From assembly GCA_947632395.1 (NCBI GenBank), contig CANRPA010000004.1, positions 1-61,752 of the forward strand: 61,752 nucleotides of DNA, in the 5' to 3' direction. This document shows, in pieces, positions 10,792 to 28,532 of the stretch. This DNA comes from an uncultured Bacilli bacterium (GTDB lineage: Bacteria; Bacillota_I; Bacilli_A; RF39; UBA660). Positions within the stretch are counted from its first letter, which is position 1. Each line of letters begins with the position of its first letter. Both the position numbers and the translations under genes were made by a program. The notes beneath the pieces were generated by a model. It saw only the letters and a program-made list of their open reading frames with translations. It was not told the origin of the DNA and ran no database searches.

Positions 10792-12819
10792 TTAACAAGT
10801 TTTTATCTCTAATTTATCTTTATTAATTTTAAACATAATACTTCCATTTTGATCTGTTCTGTATATTTTTGAATTAAATAAATTATCTAATACTTCTTTA
10901 TTTGGATGACCATATCTATTATTTTTTCCTACACTAATTATTGAATATTTAGGATTTATTATATTTATAAATTCCTTACTACTACTTGTCTTAGATCCAT
11001 GATGTCCTACTTTAAGTACATCTATATTTGATAAATTATATTTATTTAATATTTCATTTTCAGTAGTTATAGATGCATCTCCCATAAATAAGAATTTATA
11101 ATTATTAAGTTTTATATAAGTAACACTTGAATTATCATTTTCATTATCATAATTTTTTGTATTTAAAAAATATAATTTATTGTTATCTATATTTAATTTA
11201 TTTATACAACTATAATATTTTATTTTTTTTGTATTTAAAACTTTAATTAATTCATTTTCTAAATCATTGTATAATCCACAATTAAATATTACTTTTTTTA
11301 TTTTAAAATTGTTTACTAAATTAATTGCTTCTCCCATATGATCAAAATCTCCATGACTGAATATCATATAATCAATATCTTTTATACCTTCACTTTTCAA
11401 ATAGTTTATTATATCTTTTGAATAATTTTTTGTTGTAGATCCACCAGTATCTATTAATATATCACCTCTATTATGTGGAAGATGTATTAAAGCACAATCC
11501 CCTTGCCCAACATCTATAAATGTTATATATGCGTAATTTTTTAAATAATTTATATTATTATGTATAAATATAATAATTACTATTAAAAATATATACTTAT
11601 ATTTATTATCCTTTATTTTTAATAAAACAAATATAATTACTATATAATATAAAATTACAATAAATATATTTACTTTGCATAATATTATTTCTATTTTAAA
11701 ATTAGTTATAAATAATGATAATCTTTCTAATATATTAATTAATATTTCATACATAAAATCTAATTTTCTAAATATTAAAACTATTAATGAAAACGGAAAT
11801 ATTATAACTGATATTATTGGTACAAATATTATATTATTTAATACTGTCATTATATTTATACTAAAGTAATTATTAATAAGTATTGGTATACCTGCCATAA
11901 ATGATATAAACGATGTCATAAATATTTTTGATATGTAATTTTTGCACTTATTTATTATTTTACTAAAATATACTAAAAAAAGAGAGACTACATAACTAAA
12001 TTTAAATCCTGTATTATATATGTTATATGGATTTACAAGTAAACTTATACAAAGTATTATTAAAAGTATTTTAAACGTACTAAGTCGCAAATTTAAAAAT
12101 TTATTTAAAGTAATTAATATAAAAAGATATGTAGCTCTTATTACTGATGGAGTAAAATTAGTAAGAAACATATAAAATATTAAAAAAATACTTACAAATA
12201 TATAGTTTATATTAATCTTTTTTATTTTGTTTAATATTAATAATATTATAGTTGATAATAATGTTATATGCATACCTGATACAGAAAATAAATGACTTAT
12301 TCCATTAGTTCTATAAGATTCTAAAACATCACTATTTATATCCGAAGAATTACCTAATATAAATGTTTTTAAATATTCGGATTTTTTTAAATTACTTATT
12401 CTTTCAATTAAGTAATTTTTTATATTATAAAATATATTTTTATTTTTTCTTATTATCTTTATATCATCCGTTTTGATACTATAATAAGTATTTTTACTTA
12501 ACATATATTTTCTATAATTAAAAAGATTAAAAATGTTATTATCACTTAAATAATTTAGTTTACCATTTACTTTTATTTTATCTCCTAATTTAATATCAAT
12601 ATTATTTGTATAAACAATTATATTCTCTTTTGCTTTTATATTTAAAGTTAATTTACTGTCACTTATTTTAATATTAGTTACTGTTCCAACAATATTTGTA
12701 TCTGTTTCTTTATACTTACTTTCTACATTATTTATTTTATATATTATATTTACTATACTTATTAATATTAAAATTACTATAAATATATTAGAGTTTAATA
12801 TATTCTTTAATCTTTGAAT
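10792..12819 (-). CDS. comEC: DNA uptake channel ComEC/Rec2 (true start uncertain; frame open to 12831)
   Basis: GISHLFSVSGMH, DVGQGD, HGDFDH, LKVGHHGSKTSS; in-frame N-terminal extension upstream of the 12504 ATG. Confidence 0.92.
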   Translation of the reverse strand: MQRLKNILNSNIFIVILILISIVNIIYKINNVESKYKETDTNIVGTVTNIKISDSKLTLNIKAKENIIVYTNNIDIKLGDKIKVNGKLNYLSDNNIFNLFNYRKYMLSKNTYYSIKTDDIKIIRKNKNIFYNIKNYLIERISNLKKSEYLKTFILGNSSDINSDVLESYRTNGISHLFSVSGMHITLLSTIILLILNKIKKININYIFVSIFLIFYMFLTNFTPSVIRATYLFILITLNKFLNLRLSTFKILLIILCISLLVNPYNIYNTGFKFSYVVSLFLVYFSKIINKCKNYISKIFMTSFISFMAGIPILINNYFSINIMTVLNNIIFVPIISVIIFPFSLIVLIFRKLDFMYEILINILERLSLFITNFKIEIILCKVNIFIVILYYIVIIFVLLKIKDNKYKYIFLIVIIIFIHNNINYLKNYAYITFIDVGQGDCALIHLPHNRGDILIDTGGSTTKNYSKDIINYLKSEGIKDIDYMIFSHGDFDHMGEAINLVNNFKIKKVIFNCGLYNDLENELIKVLNTKKIKYYSCINKLNIDNNKLYFLNTKNYDNENDNSSVTYIKLNNYKFLFMGDASITTENEILNKYNLSNIDVLKVGHHGSKTSSSKEFINIINPKYSIISVGKNNRYGHPNKEVLDNLFNSKIYRTDQNGSIMFKINKDKLEIKTC

Positions 12820-21596: not shown

Positions 21597-23762
21597 TTAT
21601 ATTTTTCTAGGATTAAAGTCTATATCTACAATAACCTTATTATTTTGTTTAGATTTATCTACTATAAATTTTAAATGTTCATAAACATCTTTAATATTTT
21701 TATATTTCAATATTATTTGCATATAATATTTATTATTTATTTTAGGAATGTTACACATACTTGGACCTAGTACTATTACATTATTTATATTTTTATTTAA
21801 ATAATCTTTTATTTTATTTGATTCACTATTTAATAAATTTAAATCAGTACTTGTTAATTTTATTAAAGTTAAAAGACAATATGGAGGATATTTTAACTTT
21901 TTTCTTATGCTCATCTCTTCATTATAAAAACTTATATAGTCATTTAAACTTGCATATCTTATGCTATAATGATCTTTATTAAAACATTGTATTATAACTT
22001 TTCCATTTGTCTTAGATCTACCACTTCTACCCGATACTTGACTTAAAAGAGAATATGTTCTTTCTCCACTCCTAAAATCTGGTATATTTAAAGTAGCATC
22101 CCCATTTATAATTCCTACAAGTGTTACATCATCAAAATCAAGTCCTTTAGATACCATTTGTGTACCTATCAAAATATTATATTTTTTGTTTTTAAAATCA
22201 TTTATAATTTTTTCATGACTACCTTTTTTTCTAGTGGTATCTATATCCATTCTAATTGTTTTAGCACCTTTAATTAATTTATTAATTTCTTCTTCTAATT
22301 TTTCTGTACCAAGACCAAGATTTGATAATGATTCACTACAACATTTAGGACATTTTAATGGTTTAAACGTTGTATATCCACAATAATGACAATTTAATTT
22401 ATTACCATTTTTATGATATGTAAGTGGTATATCACAGTTTGGACACTTTATTGTCTCACCACATTGCATACATGATATAACAGTTGAATATCCCCTTCTA
22501 TTTAAAAACAATATTACTTGTTCATCATTTTTTAATCTTGTATTTATATCATCTATTAATTCACCCGATAATATTTTATTTCCTTTTTTTATTTCTTCTT
22601 TTGTATCTATTAATTTCACTTTTGGCATACTTTTATTTATTCTAGTTTTTAGTTCAAGTAATTTATATATACCCATTTTGGCTTTTGTATAACTTTCTAT
22701 AAGTGGTGTTGCACTACCAAAAATTATTGGACAATTATGAGTTCTAGCCCTTTTTATTGCAATATCTGCTGTATCATATTTTGGGTTATTTTCTTGCTTA
22801 TACGTATCTGAATGTTCTTCATCCATAACTATAAGTCCAATATTAGTAAATGGCGCAAATATAGCACTTCTAGCACCTATTACTATAGATACTTCTCCTC
22901 TTTCAATTTTTCTCCATTCATCATATTTTTCTCCATCAGAAAGAGCGCTGTGCAGAATAGCAATAGAATTTTTAAATCTACCTCTAAATATATTTACAAC
23001 TTGTGGAGTTAGACTTATTTCAGGAACAAGTACTATTACTTGTTTCTTATTTTTTAATACCTCTTCTATTATGTGCATATATACTTCTGTTTTTCCACTA
23101 CCAGTTACTCCATGAAGCAAGTAAGGTATAAAGGAATTTAAATTTTTAACTACCTCTTTAACTACTTTAGTCTGATCCTCATTTAATATTACTTTTTTAT
23201 CTTCTTTAATATTTACATTATTTAATCTATACGTTTCTTCCTTTTTCTCTTCTATTACATTTAATCTTTTTAAAGTATTTATACTAGATAATGATATTTT
23301 AGTTAATTCTTCTTTTAATACATCTTTTTCTTTTAACTTTTCTATTATTTCTTTTTGATTATCATTTTTTGGTATATAATTTTTATCTATTAATTTTATA
23401 TATGTTATATATTTTTTATTTATTTCAAAGTTTTTATGAGCTTTAAGTGCAGTAGGTAACATTGTTTGATAAGCACTTATTAAATTACAAAGTGTTTTTT
23501 TACTAATATAAACACCTAAATCTAATAACTCTTTATTAAGTACTGGTTCCTCATCAGTTACTTTAATTATTTCTTTAAGTTCGTAATCTATATTCTTATT
23601 ATCATCTATTTTTAATACAAAACCCTCTAATTGCTGCTTACCAAATGGAACTAATACTCTTTCTCCTACCTTAATTTTTTCTCTTAAATTAGTAGGAATT
23701 AAATAAGTAAATGTTTTATCTACCCCTCTAGCTTTAAGTTCTACAAGCACATCTGCATACAT
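21597..23762 (-). CDS. priA: Primosomal protein N'
   Basis: LHGVTGSGKTEVY, DEEH, Cys-rich zinc region, GTQMVSKGLDF. Confidence 0.97.
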   Translation of the reverse strand: MYADVLVELKARGVDKTFTYLIPTNLREKIKVGERVLVPFGKQQLEGFVLKIDDNKNIDYELKEIIKVTDEEPVLNKELLDLGVYISKKTLCNLISAYQTMLPTALKAHKNFEINKKYITYIKLIDKNYIPKNDNQKEIIEKLKEKDVLKEELTKISLSSINTLKRLNVIEEKKEETYRLNNVNIKEDKKVILNEDQTKVVKEVVKNLNSFIPYLLHGVTGSGKTEVYMHIIEEVLKNKKQVIVLVPEISLTPQVVNIFRGRFKNSIAILHSALSDGEKYDEWRKIERGEVSIVIGARSAIFAPFTNIGLIVMDEEHSDTYKQENNPKYDTADIAIKRARTHNCPIIFGSATPLIESYTKAKMGIYKLLELKTRINKSMPKVKLIDTKEEIKKGNKILSGELIDDINTRLKNDEQVILFLNRRGYSTVISCMQCGETIKCPNCDIPLTYHKNGNKLNCHYCGYTTFKPLKCPKCCSESLSNLGLGTEKLEEEINKLIKGAKTIRMDIDTTRKKGSHEKIINDFKNKKYNILIGTQMVSKGLDFDDVTLVGIINGDATLNIPDFRSGERTYSLLSQVSGRSGRSKTNGKVIIQCFNKDHYSIRYASLNDYISFYNEEMSIRKKLKYPPYCLLTLIKLTSTDLNLLNSESNKIKDYLNKNINNVIVLGPSMCNIPKINNKYYMQIILKYKNIKDVYEHLKFIVDKSKQNNKVIVDIDFNPRKI

Positions 23763-23875
23763 ATAACCACCATATTAATTATATCAAAATTAAATAAAAA
23801 AAAGTAGGATTACTTGTAATATATCCAACTTTTGTAATTCTTACAACATATATTTATAATATTTAATATAATCTA

Positions 23876-24859
23876 CTATATGTTTTTAAGTAAATCTAAA
23901 GTCTCGTTAAAAGTAGATACACCTATTATTTTTATTTTATAATTATTTTCGTTCTTTAATTTAATGGCCTCATCATAATTTTCGCCATTTGGAACTATAA
24001 AAATTGGTGCCTTACTATTTTCAGCAGACATTAATTTATATTTAATACCACCTATACTACCAACATTACCATCTTCATCTATTGTACCCGTTACAATTAT
24101 TTTTTTACCCTTAGTTATATCTTCTTTAACAAGTGAATTATAAATAGAAAGTGATAAAGCAAGTCCTCCACTTGATCCTGATTCGTTTTTATCTACTTTA
24201 ATTTTTATTTCAGGATTAGTTTCATATTCTTTCATGTCTACAATAACAATGCCTATTTTTTTCTCGTTATCTTCTAATTTTACATAAGCATATCTATCAT
24301 ATTCTTTATTATTGTTTTTTACTTTTATATTTATTTTATCGTTTTCAGATTTATATTTTATAATATCTAAAAGATCATCTCTTTTTTGTATAGTTTTACC
24401 ATCTATGCTTATTATCTCATCACCTACTTTTAATGATGTATCAGCAAGTTTATCTATATATAATACTGTAGCTTTATTATTCTTTAATTTAATTTCTTTA
24501 TCTGCACTAGTATAAGCCACATATATAGCATTACTAATTGATTCATTCATTAATATTTTATCTCTTATTAAATAGGAATCATCATCTTCTGTATCTAACA
24601 TTACATCATCTACTTTGTATATATTCCAGTTTTTATTTATAAGTGAATATAGTAAAGTTGGAATAGTTGCTTTATACTCTTTTACATATACTAAATTAAA
24701 ACTTCCTTCACTTTCATATCCATCAAGTTCTATCTTATCTCCTATGTTGCTTATACCACCAGGAGCATCAATATAATAAGGTAAGTGAATAGTTAAACAA
24801 ATAAATAGTATTATGAAAAATATTATTTTTTTATAATTTTCCTTAATTATCTTTTTCAT
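23876..24859 (-). CDS. YlbL-like PDZ and Lon-type (S16) protease
   Basis: TM, PDZ, SGSSGGLA and GSIGGIKYKL Ser-Lys dyad motifs. Confidence 0.88.
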   Translation of the reverse strand: MKKIIKENYKKIIFFIILFICLTIHLPYYIDAPGGISNIGDKIELDGYESEGSFNLVYVKEYKATIPTLLYSLINKNWNIYKVDDVMLDTEDDDSYLIRDKILMNESISNAIYVAYTSADKEIKLKNNKATVLYIDKLADTSLKVGDEIISIDGKTIQKRDDLLDIIKYKSENDKINIKVKNNNKEYDRYAYVKLEDNEKKIGIVIVDMKEYETNPEIKIKVDKNESGSSGGLALSLSIYNSLVKEDITKGKKIIVTGTIDEDGNVGSIGGIKYKLMSAENSKAPIFIVPNGENYDEAIKLKNENNYKIKIIGVSTFNETLDLLKNI

Positions 24860-24963
24860 TTACTCACCTACTATAATTTATGATAACATTTATAAATTTA
24901 TTTGTAAAGCAAAAAACTATTAACAAAATTACTTTGTCAATAGTCTTAAATATATCAACATTT

Positions 24964-25330
24964 TTATTTTATCAAATTTTTCTTGCCAGAAGTAAGCACA
25001 CCTTTAATTAAATCATACTGTCTTCCATAATTTACACCCAATTCTTCCAAAGTATTATCTAACATTCTAGTTGCTTCTTCTCTCGTATAATTTTTATTAT
25101 TCTTCCTTGAAAAACATTTTGAAGGATTCATATACAAAATTCTTACCATATCCATAACTCTTTTTCAAGTGCAGTAAGTGTTGCTCTAGACATAATTATA
25201 AGCCATCTACGAGTTACAAAATCCTCATACTCTTTTGAAGTTATATTATTTGCCATATTTATTAAATCTGATTAAAGTTGTTGGTATATTCTATCCCTTT
25301 AGCAGATAATTTAGAGGCTAAATTCATTAT
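24964..25330 (-). pseudogene. Probable decayed gene of unknown function
   Basis: Several short, protein-like open segments in different frames; only a 63-aa 3' piece is called as an ORF. Confidence 0.3.
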
Positions 25331-25383
25331 ATCTTTTTGAATTTTGGTATACTTATATATTCACCTAATTATTACTATTATTT

Positions 25384-25442
25384 TCAAAAACATTCGAGTT
25401 GTACTCACTTTCGTTCGTAGCAACTTATCCGAATGTTTTTGA
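25384..25442 (-). repeat. Nested inverted repeat/hairpin 5 nt past the pilin-like stop codon
   Basis: 13-bp perfect outer stem TCAAAAACATTCG/CGAATGTTTTTGA, inner AGTTG/CAACT, apical TAC-GA-AC-GAAA-GT-GA-GTA. Confidence 0.85.
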
Positions 25443-25447
25443 TTCGA

Positions 25448-26617
25448 TTATCCTATTCGGAAAGCTGGCGCAACCCCACAAGTATTATAAGCACAGCTGA
25501 AATGCCAACTACCGTTACCATTAACAAGGTAGAAAGTGTCAGCGTCATAAGAATAAGCCGAGCGGAGCCATACAACAACTGGGGTGCCTTTATATTCCTT
25601 AATAGCTGTAGAATAATTATTGGTTGTTACACCTTTTTGTGCGTAATAATCTAACTGTCGTGTATCATCCCATGCTGTATCGTAGTTAACGTTTATTGCT
25701 CCTCCACCTTCTACATTTTCCCATACTTCATGTGGTGACAATAAATATAGTTTTTCTTTTTCTAATACATAATTTTGATTATCATTATCATCTTTACCAT
25801 GACCTGATACTACATATGTATCTATTATTACATCCTTTAGTTCTTGTGGTAAAGCATCATATATTGTACTAGTTAAATATGTTCTTAATTCACTACCATT
25901 CCATCCACCTACATTTGTTGTATATGGATACATTTCATGTTCCGTGATAATATCTGCAAATTCTATTACAAATCCACATGCAGTTAGTGAGAAACCAGGA
26001 TTATTACAAACACTTGGTGTAGTTGTGTTTGCTATACGAAGTGTAAATGTTCCAAAATCAGATAAAGTTACAGTCTTAGTATCACCTACTTGATATGGAT
26101 AAGTTCCTGATTGTACAGCTTTTTGTATTGTAGCCCAATCATCAGTTTCAAATGATACCGGATTAACATCTGCAGCTTCTGAATCAGTTTGTACATATTT
26201 TGTAAAATAATGTTTCGCATTTTCTTTTTCTGTACTAGAATAACATGCAACTTGTAATCCATTGTTTATAGTTACTTCACAGTATGCTCCATCATTTGTT
26301 TCTATTTTAAGCATTTCTGGTGCATCATCGTTATCAAATGTAACTTTATTTTCTTTATCTACATTATCTACATTTAAGTATTGTTTTATGTCTTTCAAAC
26401 TTGGATTAGGTACATAAGTTCCTTCAATTCCACCATACATAGCAGATACATATGCATATTGAACTCCTGTATATACTAATTCAGCAGATCTTTGTTTAGC
26501 ATTTGCTCTAGCACTATTAATAATATTTAAAATAACTGGGGTTGCTATTAGAGCAATGATTGCTAAAATTACAATAACTGCTAATAATTCTATTAATGTA
26601 AAACCTTTTCTATTCAT
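25448..26617 (-). CDS. Prepilin-type (type IV pilin N-methylation) protein with a C-terminal DUF6273/CLec-like domain; candidate DGR target
   Basis: MNRKG|FTLIELLAVIVILAIIALIA class III signal; C-terminal WLRSA...FYLVNGNG...GVAPAFRIG. Confidence 0.88.
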   Translation of the reverse strand: MNRKGFTLIELLAVIVILAIIALIATPVILNIINSARANAKQRSAELVYTGVQYAYVSAMYGGIEGTYVPNPSLKDIKQYLNVDNVDKENKVTFDNDDAPEMLKIETNDGAYCEVTINNGLQVACYSSTEKENAKHYFTKYVQTDSEAADVNPVSFETDDWATIQKAVQSGTYPYQVGDTKTVTLSDFGTFTLRIANTTTPSVCNNPGFSLTACGFVIEFADIITEHEMYPYTTNVGGWNGSELRTYLTSTIYDALPQELKDVIIDTYVVSGHGKDDNDNQNYVLEKEKLYLLSPHEVWENVEGGGAINVNYDTAWDDTRQLDYYAQKGVTTNNYSTAIKEYKGTPVVVWLRSAYSYDADTFYLVNGNGSWHFSCAYNTCGVAPAFRIG

Positions 26618-26819
26618 TATATTCCTCCTATACTTATCGTCTACAATATTAATTTATCAAAAAAATAAATCTTTGTCAATATTATTAATTGATATTTTAT
26701 TTTATATACATTATATTTGTAAAATATACTTAATCAATCATACTAGATATATTATTGTTATAAAAAAAACAAATAAGTAAAATATTTACCTATTTGTCGA
26801 TAGTCTGAATCAAGATAAA

Positions 26820-27902
26820 TTATCTTGATTTAACATATTCTTTCAAAGCCTCATCCATTTCTTTTGTCTGAGCTCTCATTACTCCATTAACTAAATTATA
26901 ACCTTCGTAATCTTGTAGTACCCATTGTTCATAATCTGCTTTACTTTCAAAGTATAATCCTGAAACTTGATCTAAATATAAACCATCTGTACTTTCTGGT
27001 TGAATAATTAAATCTGATGAATCTTCAAAAACATCTGATGAAGTTGAATTATCACTACTAGCACTATTACTATCAGTATAAACAGTTTCACCTTCTTCAA
27101 CTACTACTGGATCACTTGGTACTACTTCGGTTTCTTCTTTAACAATTGCGCCAGATTCATTTGCTTTTTTTAAAGCTTCCAAATATGCTTCCCAATCTTC
27201 TTTTAACCAAAGATTTCCTTCATCATCAGTTACATATTTACCTACATCTTCTGTATGAAGATTTTTTCCAGTTGTTTCATCATATGACCATCCACCTGGA
27301 AGATCACTAGAACTATCTAAAGTTCCTGTTTCTTTAACATTATCATTTTCATCTTTTATCTCATAAGATGGTTGTTTTTCAACAACTTTTCCATCTTTTT
27401 CTTCAAGTGTATCATTTTTTGTATCTGTAACAGTTGTACCTATTTCATCTTTTTTCTCTTCATCTTCTTTCGTTGCCCATAAAGTACCGTTTTCATCTTC
27501 TACTACTTTTTCAGATTGTACATTACCAGTTACTTCTCCAATTTCAATTTTTCCTGAATTTGTTTCTTTTTCTGGTAATTCTAATTCTTTTCCTAAATTA
27601 CCTAAAAAATCTGTCTTAAGACTATCACTTTTTTCATTTTCAAATGTAGGTGTTTCTTCTGGTGTAGTAGTACTTGAACTTGAAGCTCCTATACTTGACA
27701 TTTCTGGTTCTGATTTACTAGTTTTAGTGTTTCCACATCCTACGAGTGTTAAAATAATTGCAGACAATCCAGAAGCAACTATTACCTTTAATTTTTTACT
27801 GAAATTAAACTTTTTGTTTGTTTTTATTAAACCAAACTTTCCATATCTTTTTATTTTTTCTTCTACTTTCTTATCTAATTCAGTTTTTTTATAAGTATTC
27901 AT
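26820..27902 (-). CDS. Orphan putative lipoprotein
   Basis: Basic N-region, hydrophobic stretch, LVG|C lipobox, S/T/E-rich linker; TTGACA-17-TATTAT promoter upstream. Confidence 0.75.
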   Translation of the reverse strand: MNTYKKTELDKKVEEKIKRYGKFGLIKTNKKFNFSKKLKVIVASGLSAIILTLVGCGNTKTSKSEPEMSSIGASSSSTTTPEETPTFENEKSDSLKTDFLGNLGKELELPEKETNSGKIEIGEVTGNVQSEKVVEDENGTLWATKEDEEKKDEIGTTVTDTKNDTLEEKDGKVVEKQPSYEIKDENDNVKETGTLDSSSDLPGGWSYDETTGKNLHTEDVGKYVTDDEGNLWLKEDWEAYLEALKKANESGAIVKEETEVVPSDPVVVEEGETVYTDSNSASSDNSTSSDVFEDSSDLIIQPESTDGLYLDQVSGLYFESKADYEQWVLQDYEGYNLVNGVMRAQTKEMDEALKEYVKSR

Positions 27903-28038
27903 ACCATAACCCTCTTTCTTCTAAAAAGCGTATATAATTCGCGCTTTTTCAAATTTATTGATGTATATAATAGCACTTTATTAACCTTTTGTCAAATTAA
28001 AAAAAAATAATAAATAATAAAAGTTTTAATATTATTTA

Positions 28039-28242
28039 TTACATATATTTATTCATTGATTTCATCATTTGATTTACTTGTTTTTGGCTTGGTGTTCTAC
28101 CCATTTGCATCATCATTGCTTTAATCATTTGTTCATTAATTGGTGGATTTTTCTTTAAATACTTTTTCATATACTTTCTTGCTAAAAAAAATCCTAATAC
28201 TGCTCCTACCACTAAACCAATTAACATCCATAATATATCCAT
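28039..28242 (-). CDS. yneF: YneF/UPF0154 family membrane protein
   Basis: TM followed by [26 protein letters not shown]. Confidence 0.93.
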
Positions 28243-28300
28243 GTTTTTCCTCCTTTTATTTATTATAAAACCCTTATTAATAAGGGCTTAAATACAAAAA

Positions 28301-28377
28301 TGGTCGGGAAAACAGGATTTGAACCTGCAACCCCTTGGTCCCAAACCAAGTGCTCTACCAAGTTGAGCCATTTCCCG
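28301..28377 (-). tRNA. tRNA-Pro(TGG)
   Basis: Anticodon loop TTTGGGA, CCA end. Confidence 0.96.
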
Positions 28378-28384
28378 AAACATA

Positions 28385-28461
28385 TGGTGCGCTCGAAGGG
28401 ATTCGAACCCCTGACCTTTTGGTTCGTAGCCAAACACTCTATCCAGCTGAGCTACGAGCGC
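28385..28461 (-). tRNA. tRNA-Arg(ACG)
   Basis: Anticodon loop CTACGAA, CCA end. Confidence 0.96.
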
Positions 28462-28532
28462 ATATCAACTAGTATTTTTGGTCATCTCATCCCAACACAA
28501 CTAATCTTACCACATATTTTTATTTAAGTCAA

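Follow-up and report, generated by a model that had tools for sequence, protein, structure and literature searches.

A probable fossil variable region of a decayed diversity-generating retroelement in a modular type IV pilin-like gene of an uncultured Bacilli bacterium

Introduction

The locus described here raises the question of whether a protein segment that carries the marks of hypervariation is still being rewritten and, if so, from where. It lies in a 61,752-nt stretch of DNA from an uncultured Bacilli bacterium (assembly GCA_947632395.1, contig CANRPA010000004.1, positions 1 to 61,752; hereafter, the window), in which a gene coding for a protein with a prepilin-type leader ends in a short segment of peculiar codon composition. 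An original prediction, made from the sequence alone, had proposed that this segment is the variable region (VR) of a diversity-generating retroelement (DGR), in which the adenines of a template repeat (TR) are mutagenized, and further that it is a stand-alone target that may be hypervaried to the present day by a reverse transcriptase (RT) and a TR located elsewhere in the genome. The comparison with related loci reported below agrees with the first of these proposals and leads us away from the second: the segment is probably the fossil VR of a DGR that once resided in cis, directly 3' of the modular pilin gene, and that has since decayed, leaving the VR as a frozen allele.

Results

Codon signature and template match

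The signature is confined to the last codons of the gene. Codons 354-380 (25558..25478, minus strand) form a run in which 26 of the 27 codons end in T or C, a TGG being the exception, and 7 end in C. Measured against the 39 long open reading frames (ORFs) of the window, where the third-position frequency is 0.466 for T or C and 0.039 for C, the probabilities of finding at least 26 and at least 7 such codons are 3.6e-8 and 5.8e-5, respectively. This is the longest run of its kind in the window, the runner-up reaching 17 codons. Every one of the segment's four-fold degenerate codons has T at its third position (10/10, P = 5e-4), and Lys, Glu, Gln, and Met are entirely missing from codons 354-380. 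The segment is flanked by the GC-rich stretches CTC CGC TCG and GGG GTT GCG CCA, and the local GC content is 0.44 versus 0.248 for the window as a whole. Our recount agrees with the original prediction on the codon run, the missing residues, and the GC-rich flanks, and the signature is far from chance. Within the VR, the codons that are diversified are 355-380 (25478-25555).

The nature of the signature emerges from the TRs of related loci, which we gathered from gut Bacilli contigs, first via the pilin and then via the accessory protein described below. The TRs of L087, L085, L004, L011, and L094 translate to LRSANSNNTNNFYNVNNNGDWNNNNANNTNGV(A/S)PDF, the TR translation of the intact related cassettes being LRSANSNNTNNFYNVNNNGDWNNNNANNTNGVAPDF. 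The template that had been predicted from the window, WLRSANSNNNNNFNNVNNNGNWNNNNANNTNGVAPAF, turns out to be almost identical to these real TRs, which sit beside homologous genes. In the cognate pair of L087, all 24 differences between TR and VR fall on TR adenines (24/24) and none on the 71 non-A positions. The window VR aligns without gaps with the TRs of L087, L085, L004, and L011, and it differs from them at 21 of the 37 positions at which all four have an adenine (9 changes to G, 8 to T, and 4 to C), every one of these 37 positions being the first or second of a codon. At the 49 positions where the four TRs share a base other than A, it differs at only 3 (Fisher's exact p = 2.5e-7); all three of these changes are at third codon positions, and two of them are silent relative to the TR codons. 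The adenine-mutagenized VR of the original prediction is thereby borne out: the pattern appears to have been left by mutagenic retrohoming, specific for adenines, from an orthologous template, and it points to past retrohoming at exactly this locus.

The machinery for such retrohoming is missing from the window. No second copy of the VR was recovered by blastn (word size 7) across the 61.7 kb, and neither a motif-based regular expression nor tblastn with four RTs of related cassettes (E-values up to 10) found an RT in it. A degenerate scan of genome, metagenome, and viral collections, in which each base of the VR was allowed to be itself or A, returned 0 matches to a cognate TR; the VR itself was likewise not recovered from these collections, and hence the scan is uninformative on the rest of the genome from which the window derives. 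A generic pattern for the TR family of the DUF6273 cassettes yielded two further cassettes, L093 and L094, and no matches in viral contigs. In all, 9 TRs of the cassette family were recovered, representing 7 independent cassettes (L004, L011, L085, L087, L092, L093, and L094). None of the nine is cognate to the window VR: numerical comparison of six of them gave 11 to 16 non-A mismatches, and the TR of L092 was judged non-cognate by eye.

A decayed cassette downstream of the pilin gene

The organization of the relatives indicates where the machinery would have been. The order in these cassettes is a target gene combining a pilin module with a DUF6273 domain, an accessory ORF of ~180 aa, an AAY-rich TR of ~110 nt, and an RT of the RVT_1 family. 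It is seen in full in L004, L011, L094, and L087, where the RT is cut by the contig end and is completed by the overlapping, identical L088. Partial cassettes comprise L085 and L088 (accessory gene, TR, and RT) and L092 (accessory gene and TR), with L093 contributing only a TR.

In the window, a pseudogene of the accessory protein sits directly 3' of the VR; in intact cassettes, the gene for this protein stands at the Avd position, between target and TR. The pseudogene is split over three frames (25345-25298, 25292-25155, and 25164-24967), with an in-frame stop, an internal deletion, and the loss of ~30 N-terminal and ~28 C-terminal residues. The nearest database relatives of this remnant, at 84-93% identity, are without exception fragments (71-125 aa), and the full-length versions (179-182 aa) have at most 78% identity to it. 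The cassette therefore seems to have died throughout this sub-lineage. A gap of 104 nt separates the remnant from a Lon_C/PDZ (YlbL-like) gene (23876-24859), which is followed by priA; at the same position in L004, L011, L087/88, and L094 lie the ~110-nt TR and an RVT_1 gene of 350-385 aa. Thus, of the parts of a functional cassette, the RT, the TR, and an intact accessory gene are all lacking at the window locus, and only the pseudogene is present. The earlier statement that no RT, Avd, or TR is seen in the window stands; the one thing overlooked was the decayed accessory gene. In place of the remote stand-alone target once proposed, we find the remnant of a cis cassette, with the accessory pseudogene downstream and the TR and RT gone.

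The intact accessory family comprises 143 proteins, and searches with it returned no Pfam match and no sequence match in the PDB. Its structural model is a five-helix bundle, for which the best PDB matches are the PF05635-type structures 2gsc and 2rld (probability 1.0 and 0.91, with weak E-values of 0.05-1). By position and predicted fold, this protein is Avd-like rather than a member of the Avd family. The window relic has counterparts elsewhere: the orthologous locus L084 carries one, and L023 shows traces. A further case, L091:72-603, has a split accessory remnant without TR or RT adjoining a gerA-type spore germination operon. Judging from these loci, relics of the cassette recur in independent genomic contexts.

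Target-site signals

Two signals of a DGR target site remain at the locus. The TR and VR of L087, L004, and L011 agree as far as ...CC(A/G)G(A|C)TTTC and part ways beyond it, which places the GC-rich 3' end of the window VR at the position of the initiation of mutagenic homing (IMH) sequence, and it would have functioned as such. Just past the stop codon lies a three-tiered hairpin, for which folding of the sense strand as DNA gives -16.2 kcal/mol (z -5.7). In L084, L087-89, L016, L004, and L011, a hairpin with the same core separates the VR from the accessory gene. Among 5 distinct sequences, 10 of its 19 pairs show compensatory changes, and the loop is GAAA or GGAA in all five. In the phage BPP-1 DGR, experiments defined a target hairpin that lies a few bases past the VR, with stems that act through their structure and a 5'-GRNA loop of 4 nt (PMC3240598). 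The window hairpin fits this description by analogy, and the locus thus presents both elements of that target site, namely a GC-rich segment at the IMH position and a GRNA-loop hairpin. Its stem is AT-rich and longer than the published examples. The 3' arm runs into a T-tract, and the hairpin may also act as a terminator; owing to its AT-rich stem, it was passed over by a simple terminator scan, and an Rfam scan of the window returned only tRNAs, with no match at the hairpin.

From these observations we propose the following history, set out here as a model. An ancestral cassette of accessory gene, TR, and RT would have stood directly 3' of the pilin gene. Its AAY-rich template would have been copied by error-prone reverse transcription, with adenines replaced by any base, and the GC-rich VR end and the GRNA-loop hairpin would have directed homing of the cDNA to the 3' end of the gene. 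Subsequent decay would have deleted the TR and RT and frameshifted and shortened the accessory gene, so that the present VR would be a frozen allele, which then moved between related strains by homologous recombination. The features of the locus are collected in Table 1.

Table 1. Features at the pilin locus (coordinates are positions in the window)
Feature	Position	Strand	Basis or details
Gene with prepilin leader, 389-aa product	25448..26617	-	ORF; start MNRKG|FTLIELLAV, end WLRSAYSYDADTFYLVNGNGSWHFSCAYNTCGVAPAFRIG
Class III (prepilin) signal and N-terminal methylation motif, MNRKG|FTLIELLAVIVILAIIALIA	26543..26617	-	PF07963, TIGR02532
DUF6273 domain (residues 231-388), VR-bearing putative binding module	25454..25927	-	Pfam, E 7e-17
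Tract 100% identical to L084, 567 nt	25285..25851	-	Pairwise alignment, blastn
VR, 108 nt, codons 351-386	25460..25567	-	Colinear with TRs of homologous cassettes
GC-rich 3' end of VR, GGGGTTGCGCCAGCTTTC, IMH position	25460..25477	-	TR/VR homology ends there in relatives
Three-tier hairpin 3' of stop codon	25384..25442	-	GAAA tetraloop 25409-25412; core CTACGAACGAAAGTGAGTA
Pseudogene of ~180-aa DGR accessory protein	24964..25345	-	tblastn, E 7e-49 to intact L088 protein
Intergenic stretch where TR/RT would be expected	24860..24963	-	No similarity to VR or RT

Present state of the variable region

Comparison between strains argues that the VR is no longer changing. The orthologous locus in another assembly and strain, L084, has the same region upstream (89% identity). 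The identical tract runs from the C-terminal part of DUF6273 through the VR and the hairpin into the start of the accessory pseudogene, and its flanks are ~89% identical. L084 departs from the window in the N-terminal half of its pilin (P0004) and in the indels of its accessory remnant. From these alignments, homologous recombination between strains has evidently led to the exchange of a frozen VR allele. A similar stasis is seen in three clusters of homologues defined at 90% identity, with 28, 19, and 16 sequences and with one variant occurring on 93 contigs: the last 45 alignment columns contain 4, 1, and 0 variable positions, as against 33, 27, and 8 in the rest of the protein. One gene of these clusters stands alone among housekeeping genes with no DGR nearby. 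Across three samples, L087, L088, and L089 show 100% identity, VR included; these are probably the same strain, and hence their identity is silent on activity. With the window VR identical in L084 and the VRs of the three clusters invariant or nearly so, there is no sign of the ongoing hypervariation that the original prediction had suggested, and the window VR is presumably inactive at present.

Several points weigh against this reading. Beside a badly decayed accessory gene, the VR keeps a TR-like base at every third position, and its IMH-like end is undamaged, as is the hairpin; recent servicing by a DGR in another part of the genome would also account for so pristine a VR. As for the identical VR in L084, a very recent transfer could lie behind it instead of long stasis. 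The cognate TR was not found, and the conversion of adenines at this locus is read from orthologous TRs and not from the VR's own template. Finally, the display of the protein on a pilus is suggested by its leader peptide and structural model, and none of the annotated neighbors is an assembly gene.

The pristine state of the VR bears on the alternative that the VR is an active target, still diversified in trans by a complete DGR on another contig, with the local pseudogene being debris. The complete conservation of the IMH-like end and the GRNA hairpin speaks in its favor, as does the retention of the TR-type base in 10 of 10 four-fold degenerate codons despite the strong preference of the genome for codons ending in A. 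DGRs with multiple targets exist in this group: L055 has one TR matching two VRs, and L010, another contig of the metagenome-assembled genome (MAG) that contains L011, has two VR-type genes with 3 to 5 non-A mismatches to the L011 TR. Against it stand the failure of any of the nine family TRs to be cognate, the identical VR in the second strain background of L084, the invariant or nearly invariant VRs of the three clusters on up to 93 contigs, and the empty degenerate scans for a cognate TR, made in collections from which the window genome is also absent. On balance, we regard servicing in trans as unlikely. A broader version holds that the low-GC gut Bacilli use type IV pilin scaffolds as a general DGR display platform and that the window VR remains competent for retrohoming in trans. 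At least three module types are indeed seen on near-identical leaders (L011/L087, L055, and L077), and if this version were true, the specificity of a pilus-tip adhesin would stay hypervariable despite the dead local cassette; we consider it, too, doubtful.

An origin unconnected with DGRs, whereby the NNY codons and high GC content result from selection on a binding loop rich in Asn, Tyr, Ser, and Gly or from an acquired segment, can draw on the local GC content of 0.44 against 0.25 for the genome and on the clear exchange of the 567-nt tract, VR included, between strains. However, composition cannot explain changes at 21 of 37 adenine positions versus 3 of 49 non-adenine positions, the exchanged tract also takes in AT-rich flanks, and the accessory pseudogene and GRNA hairpin at the positions they hold in intact cassettes would be left unexplained; this explanation is strongly disfavored, and we regard it as very improbable. 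Hardly any credence attaches to shufflon-type or cassette recombination, in which site-specific inversion, or gene conversion from silent cassettes, would generate the variation at the pilin C-terminus: the gene is certainly a mosaic, with P0004 in L084 having the same C-terminal part and another N-terminal half and P0018 and P0022 sharing the N-terminal module and having LRR_5 instead of DUF6273, but 23500-28500 contains no silent C-terminal copies and no sfx-type inverted-repeat set, on which ground a shufflon at the pilin gene was rejected, no recombinase is found among the annotated neighbors (not every ORF of the stretch having been scanned), and the mosaicism looks like ordinary homologous recombination between strains and not programmed switching. 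The evidence thus continues to favor a fossil VR left by a cis cassette.

Protein architecture

In the product of the gene, a prepilin leader and alpha-1 helix are followed by a small sheet of pilin type and then, past a linker, by a DUF6273 module at the C-terminus. The leader, which the original prediction had recognized as a class III signal (G|FTLIE), is matched by N_methyl PF07963 (residues 2-25, E 3e-8) and by the NCBIfam prepilin cleavage/methylation model TIGR02532 (residues 3-26, E 2e-8). It has the short basic leader, the Gly at -1, the Glu at +5, and the hydrophobic stretch of such signals, and a motif scan found it to be the sole prepilin motif among the ORFs of the window. DUF6273 scores 62.3 bits against a Pfam gathering cutoff of 23.5. 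In the AlphaFold model, with an overall predicted local distance difference test score (pLDDT) of 79, residues 8-62 form a helix, 91-141 strands, 143-149 a low-confidence linker, and 150-389 a globular domain; the long alpha-1 helix and beta-sheet characteristic of pilins are thus present in the prediction, at a pLDDT of mostly 60-85. The protein accordingly resembles a modular type IV pilin with a predicted DUF6273 binding module at the C-terminus, and it may function as an adhesin. Pilus assembly genes were not noted in the window, where the neighbors annotated by Pfam are housekeeping genes (PriA, DnaB/DnaI-like, and ThiI) and no scan was aimed at the peptidase, ATPase, or platform proteins.

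A Foldseek search with the model recovered 25 gut-phage proteins at E<1e-3 (best 3.6e-13), several of which are named DUF6273, tail-fiber, or receptor-binding proteins. The PDB match, 9qa6 (E 2e-4), is the IgA peptidase of Thomasclavelia ramosa, whose N-terminal domain is annotated as DUF6273 (PMC12402451). Canonical C-type lectin (CLec) structures, such as Mtd, TvpA, and others, were not returned with significance by Foldseek against the PDB, CD23 reaching only E ~0.7. DUF6273 has been described as C-type-lectin-like (PMC10743442); its CLec character is taken by analogy from that description, while the fold search matched only DUF6273 relatives.

Related loci and protein family

The pilin+DUF6273 family is large, with >6,800 proteins at E<=1e-3, and the combination of N_methyl with DUF6273 is seen in nearly all of the best 120 members listed. 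In 20 aligned homologues, the C-terminus reads WWLRSAxSxxxxxFYxVxxxGDWxxxxAxxTxGVAPAFRIG and varies only at x. L001-3, with a homologue of 66% identity, have no RT or accessory remnant within 10 kb, and the VR there already has codons ending in A. By exact look-up, neither the window protein nor P0002 is on record in public assemblies. The N-terminal module of the window pilin recurs in P0018 and P0022 (87-91% identity over ~160 aa), where it is fused to an LRR_5/BspA-type module (PF13306) and not to DUF6273, which suggests module swapping on one pilin scaffold.

Other prepilin-leader proteins are also associated with DGRs. L077:9989-13962, from a related gut Bacilli MAG, is a complete DGR on a prepilin-leader protein with an FGE-sulfatase-like VR: its VR (11517-11632) and TR (11884-11999) differ at 16 positions, 16/16 being A>N, and the TR is followed by bAvd (PF22296) and an RT with an IGNYTSQ motif. 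In L055:140-3883, one TR (1851-1928) matches two VRs within a single prepilin-leader gene, with 11 A>N and 2 other changes in the VR at 1062-1139 and 7 A>N in that at 1671-1748; the product is a doubly diversified pilin-like protein with two DUF6273-like repeats. On this comparison, prepilin-leader proteins are targeted by DGRs recurrently in these MAGs.

The RTs of the DUF6273-pilin cassettes (L011:6147-7304, L088:1293-2354, and L004:2887-3826) carry LG(I/V)E(I/M)AQ where those of L055 and L077 have IGN(M/Y)TSQ. Other DGR RTs also carry SQ at that motif position. The RT of L004 is split into two ORFs and lacks the YxDD box, and this cassette may also be decaying. In the TRs of L092 and L093, a TAA (F-*-N) replaces the TAC or TAT of the others. 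A template that stays untranslated would take no harm from it; in the VR, an unmutated adenine there would give a stop, leaving mutated copies as the only viable ones. Immediately 3' of each TR in the family, the sequence is conserved as GCAGAACAGGT(A/T)AAATAAAG...ACACTTTAA...TTTTAAAAGAAAGGAT (L004:2468-2545, L011:5911-5990, L087:2051-2130, L085:873-950, and also L093 and L094). It is probably a structured spacer part of the DGR RNA between TR and RT.

Discussion

The window feature is a DGR target of a known kind, caught in what is most likely a decayed state, and a first point of reference is the prototype DGR, that of Bordetella phage BPP-1 (mtd-avd-TR-brt). The intact relatives of the window locus have its gene order, in which a target bearing the VR at its 3' end is followed by the gene for a small, helical accessory protein and then by TR and RT. 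They share with BPP-1 the adenine-specific differences between TR and VR, and likewise a GC-rich VR end followed by a hairpin with a 4-nt GRNA loop. The distinctions are several. The BPP-1 target is the tip of a phage tail fiber, whereas here it is a protein with a prepilin signal and DUF6273. The ~180-aa accessory protein has no Pfam match to bAvd or PF05635 and only a weak fold match, the RT motif is LG(I/V)E(I/M)AQ rather than the IGxxxSQ of L055 and L077, and the hairpin stem is AT-rich and three-tiered. The window itself, moreover, lacks a TR and an RT, and its accessory gene is dead.

As regards the display of variable domains, the closest likeness is to the tip pilins of the Bacteroides type V pili (bioRxiv 10.1101/2024.11.15.621889), in which a lectin-like head made variable by a DGR is mounted on a pilus subunit of a gut commensal, presumably to vary the specificity of adhesion, an arrangement that the window protein may share. 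Those are type V pilins of the Bacteroidota, assembled by lipoprotein-type strand exchange, whereas the window protein resembles type IV pilins, with a class III signal and an N-terminal alpha-helix, the cassettes of its kind are found in low-GC Bacilli-type MAGs, and the window element is a relic. In the same study, the variable proteins of cellular Bacillota are said to resemble phage receptor-binding proteins, with type IV pilins going unmentioned. DUF6273 is known as a DGR target domain of gut phages from the tentaclins (PMC10743442) and from Faecalibacterium prophages (PMC11792537). The VR-bearing Pfam family is thus the same; the phage targets, however, are virion proteins, while the window gene is chromosomal, lies among housekeeping genes, and has a pilin N-terminus.

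The grafting of a C-terminal binding module onto an N-terminal pilin module has a parallel in the modular type IV pilins of monoderm bacteria, PilB and PilC of Streptococcus sanguinis among them (PMC8179133, PMC9934059). There the grafts are a vWA or a ConA-like lectin domain, as opposed to a DUF6273 with a DGR-type VR, and the window locus differs further in having no other prepilins and no assembly machinery among its annotated neighbors. The R64 shufflon (PilV) likewise makes a type IV pilin variable at the C-terminal end that binds the receptor but does so by inversion at sfx repeats through Rci, whereas no such repeats lie in 23500-28500 of the window and no recombinase is found among the annotated neighbors. 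A "GspG-type pilin" domain is entered in a table of rare VR-bearing domains (PMC11661182). Pili are unmentioned in the DGR survey of Roux et al. 2021, and a search of the literature on DGRs together with prepilins or type IV pili found nothing more specific than that table entry.

DGR diversification of pilus adhesins, documented for the Bacteroides type V pili, is here seen as the same strategy on type IV pilin-like scaffolds, and the hosts are poorly known low-GC gut Bacilli. Because the family has only 143 accessory proteins as against >6,800 pilin+DUF6273 proteins, and because the VR C-termini of the three homologue clusters are mostly static, a life cycle is suggested in which these elements diversify a protein, then freeze, and then spread by recombination. 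This has a consequence for annotation: a VR-like codon signature with no RT nearby may mark a relic and not a remote target, and a decayed accessory gene is a useful marker of such relics.

Two further observations concern the vicinity of the pilin gene. Directly upstream of it (26820-27902, minus strand), the window codes for a 360-aa protein with an N-terminal hydrophobic stretch that ends in a Cys; with this lipoprotein-like LVGCGN, a body rich in Ser, Thr, Glu, and Asp, and no Pfam match, it could be another surface protein. An 18-nt box, TTAAGACTATTGACAAAG (minus strand), which includes a TTGACA -35 hexamer, occurs in three copies: upstream of the YlbL-like gene (24932-24949), upstream of the pilin gene (26671-26688), and again ~120 nt further up (26792-26809). 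This box is also kept in L084 and may be a shared promoter or operator.

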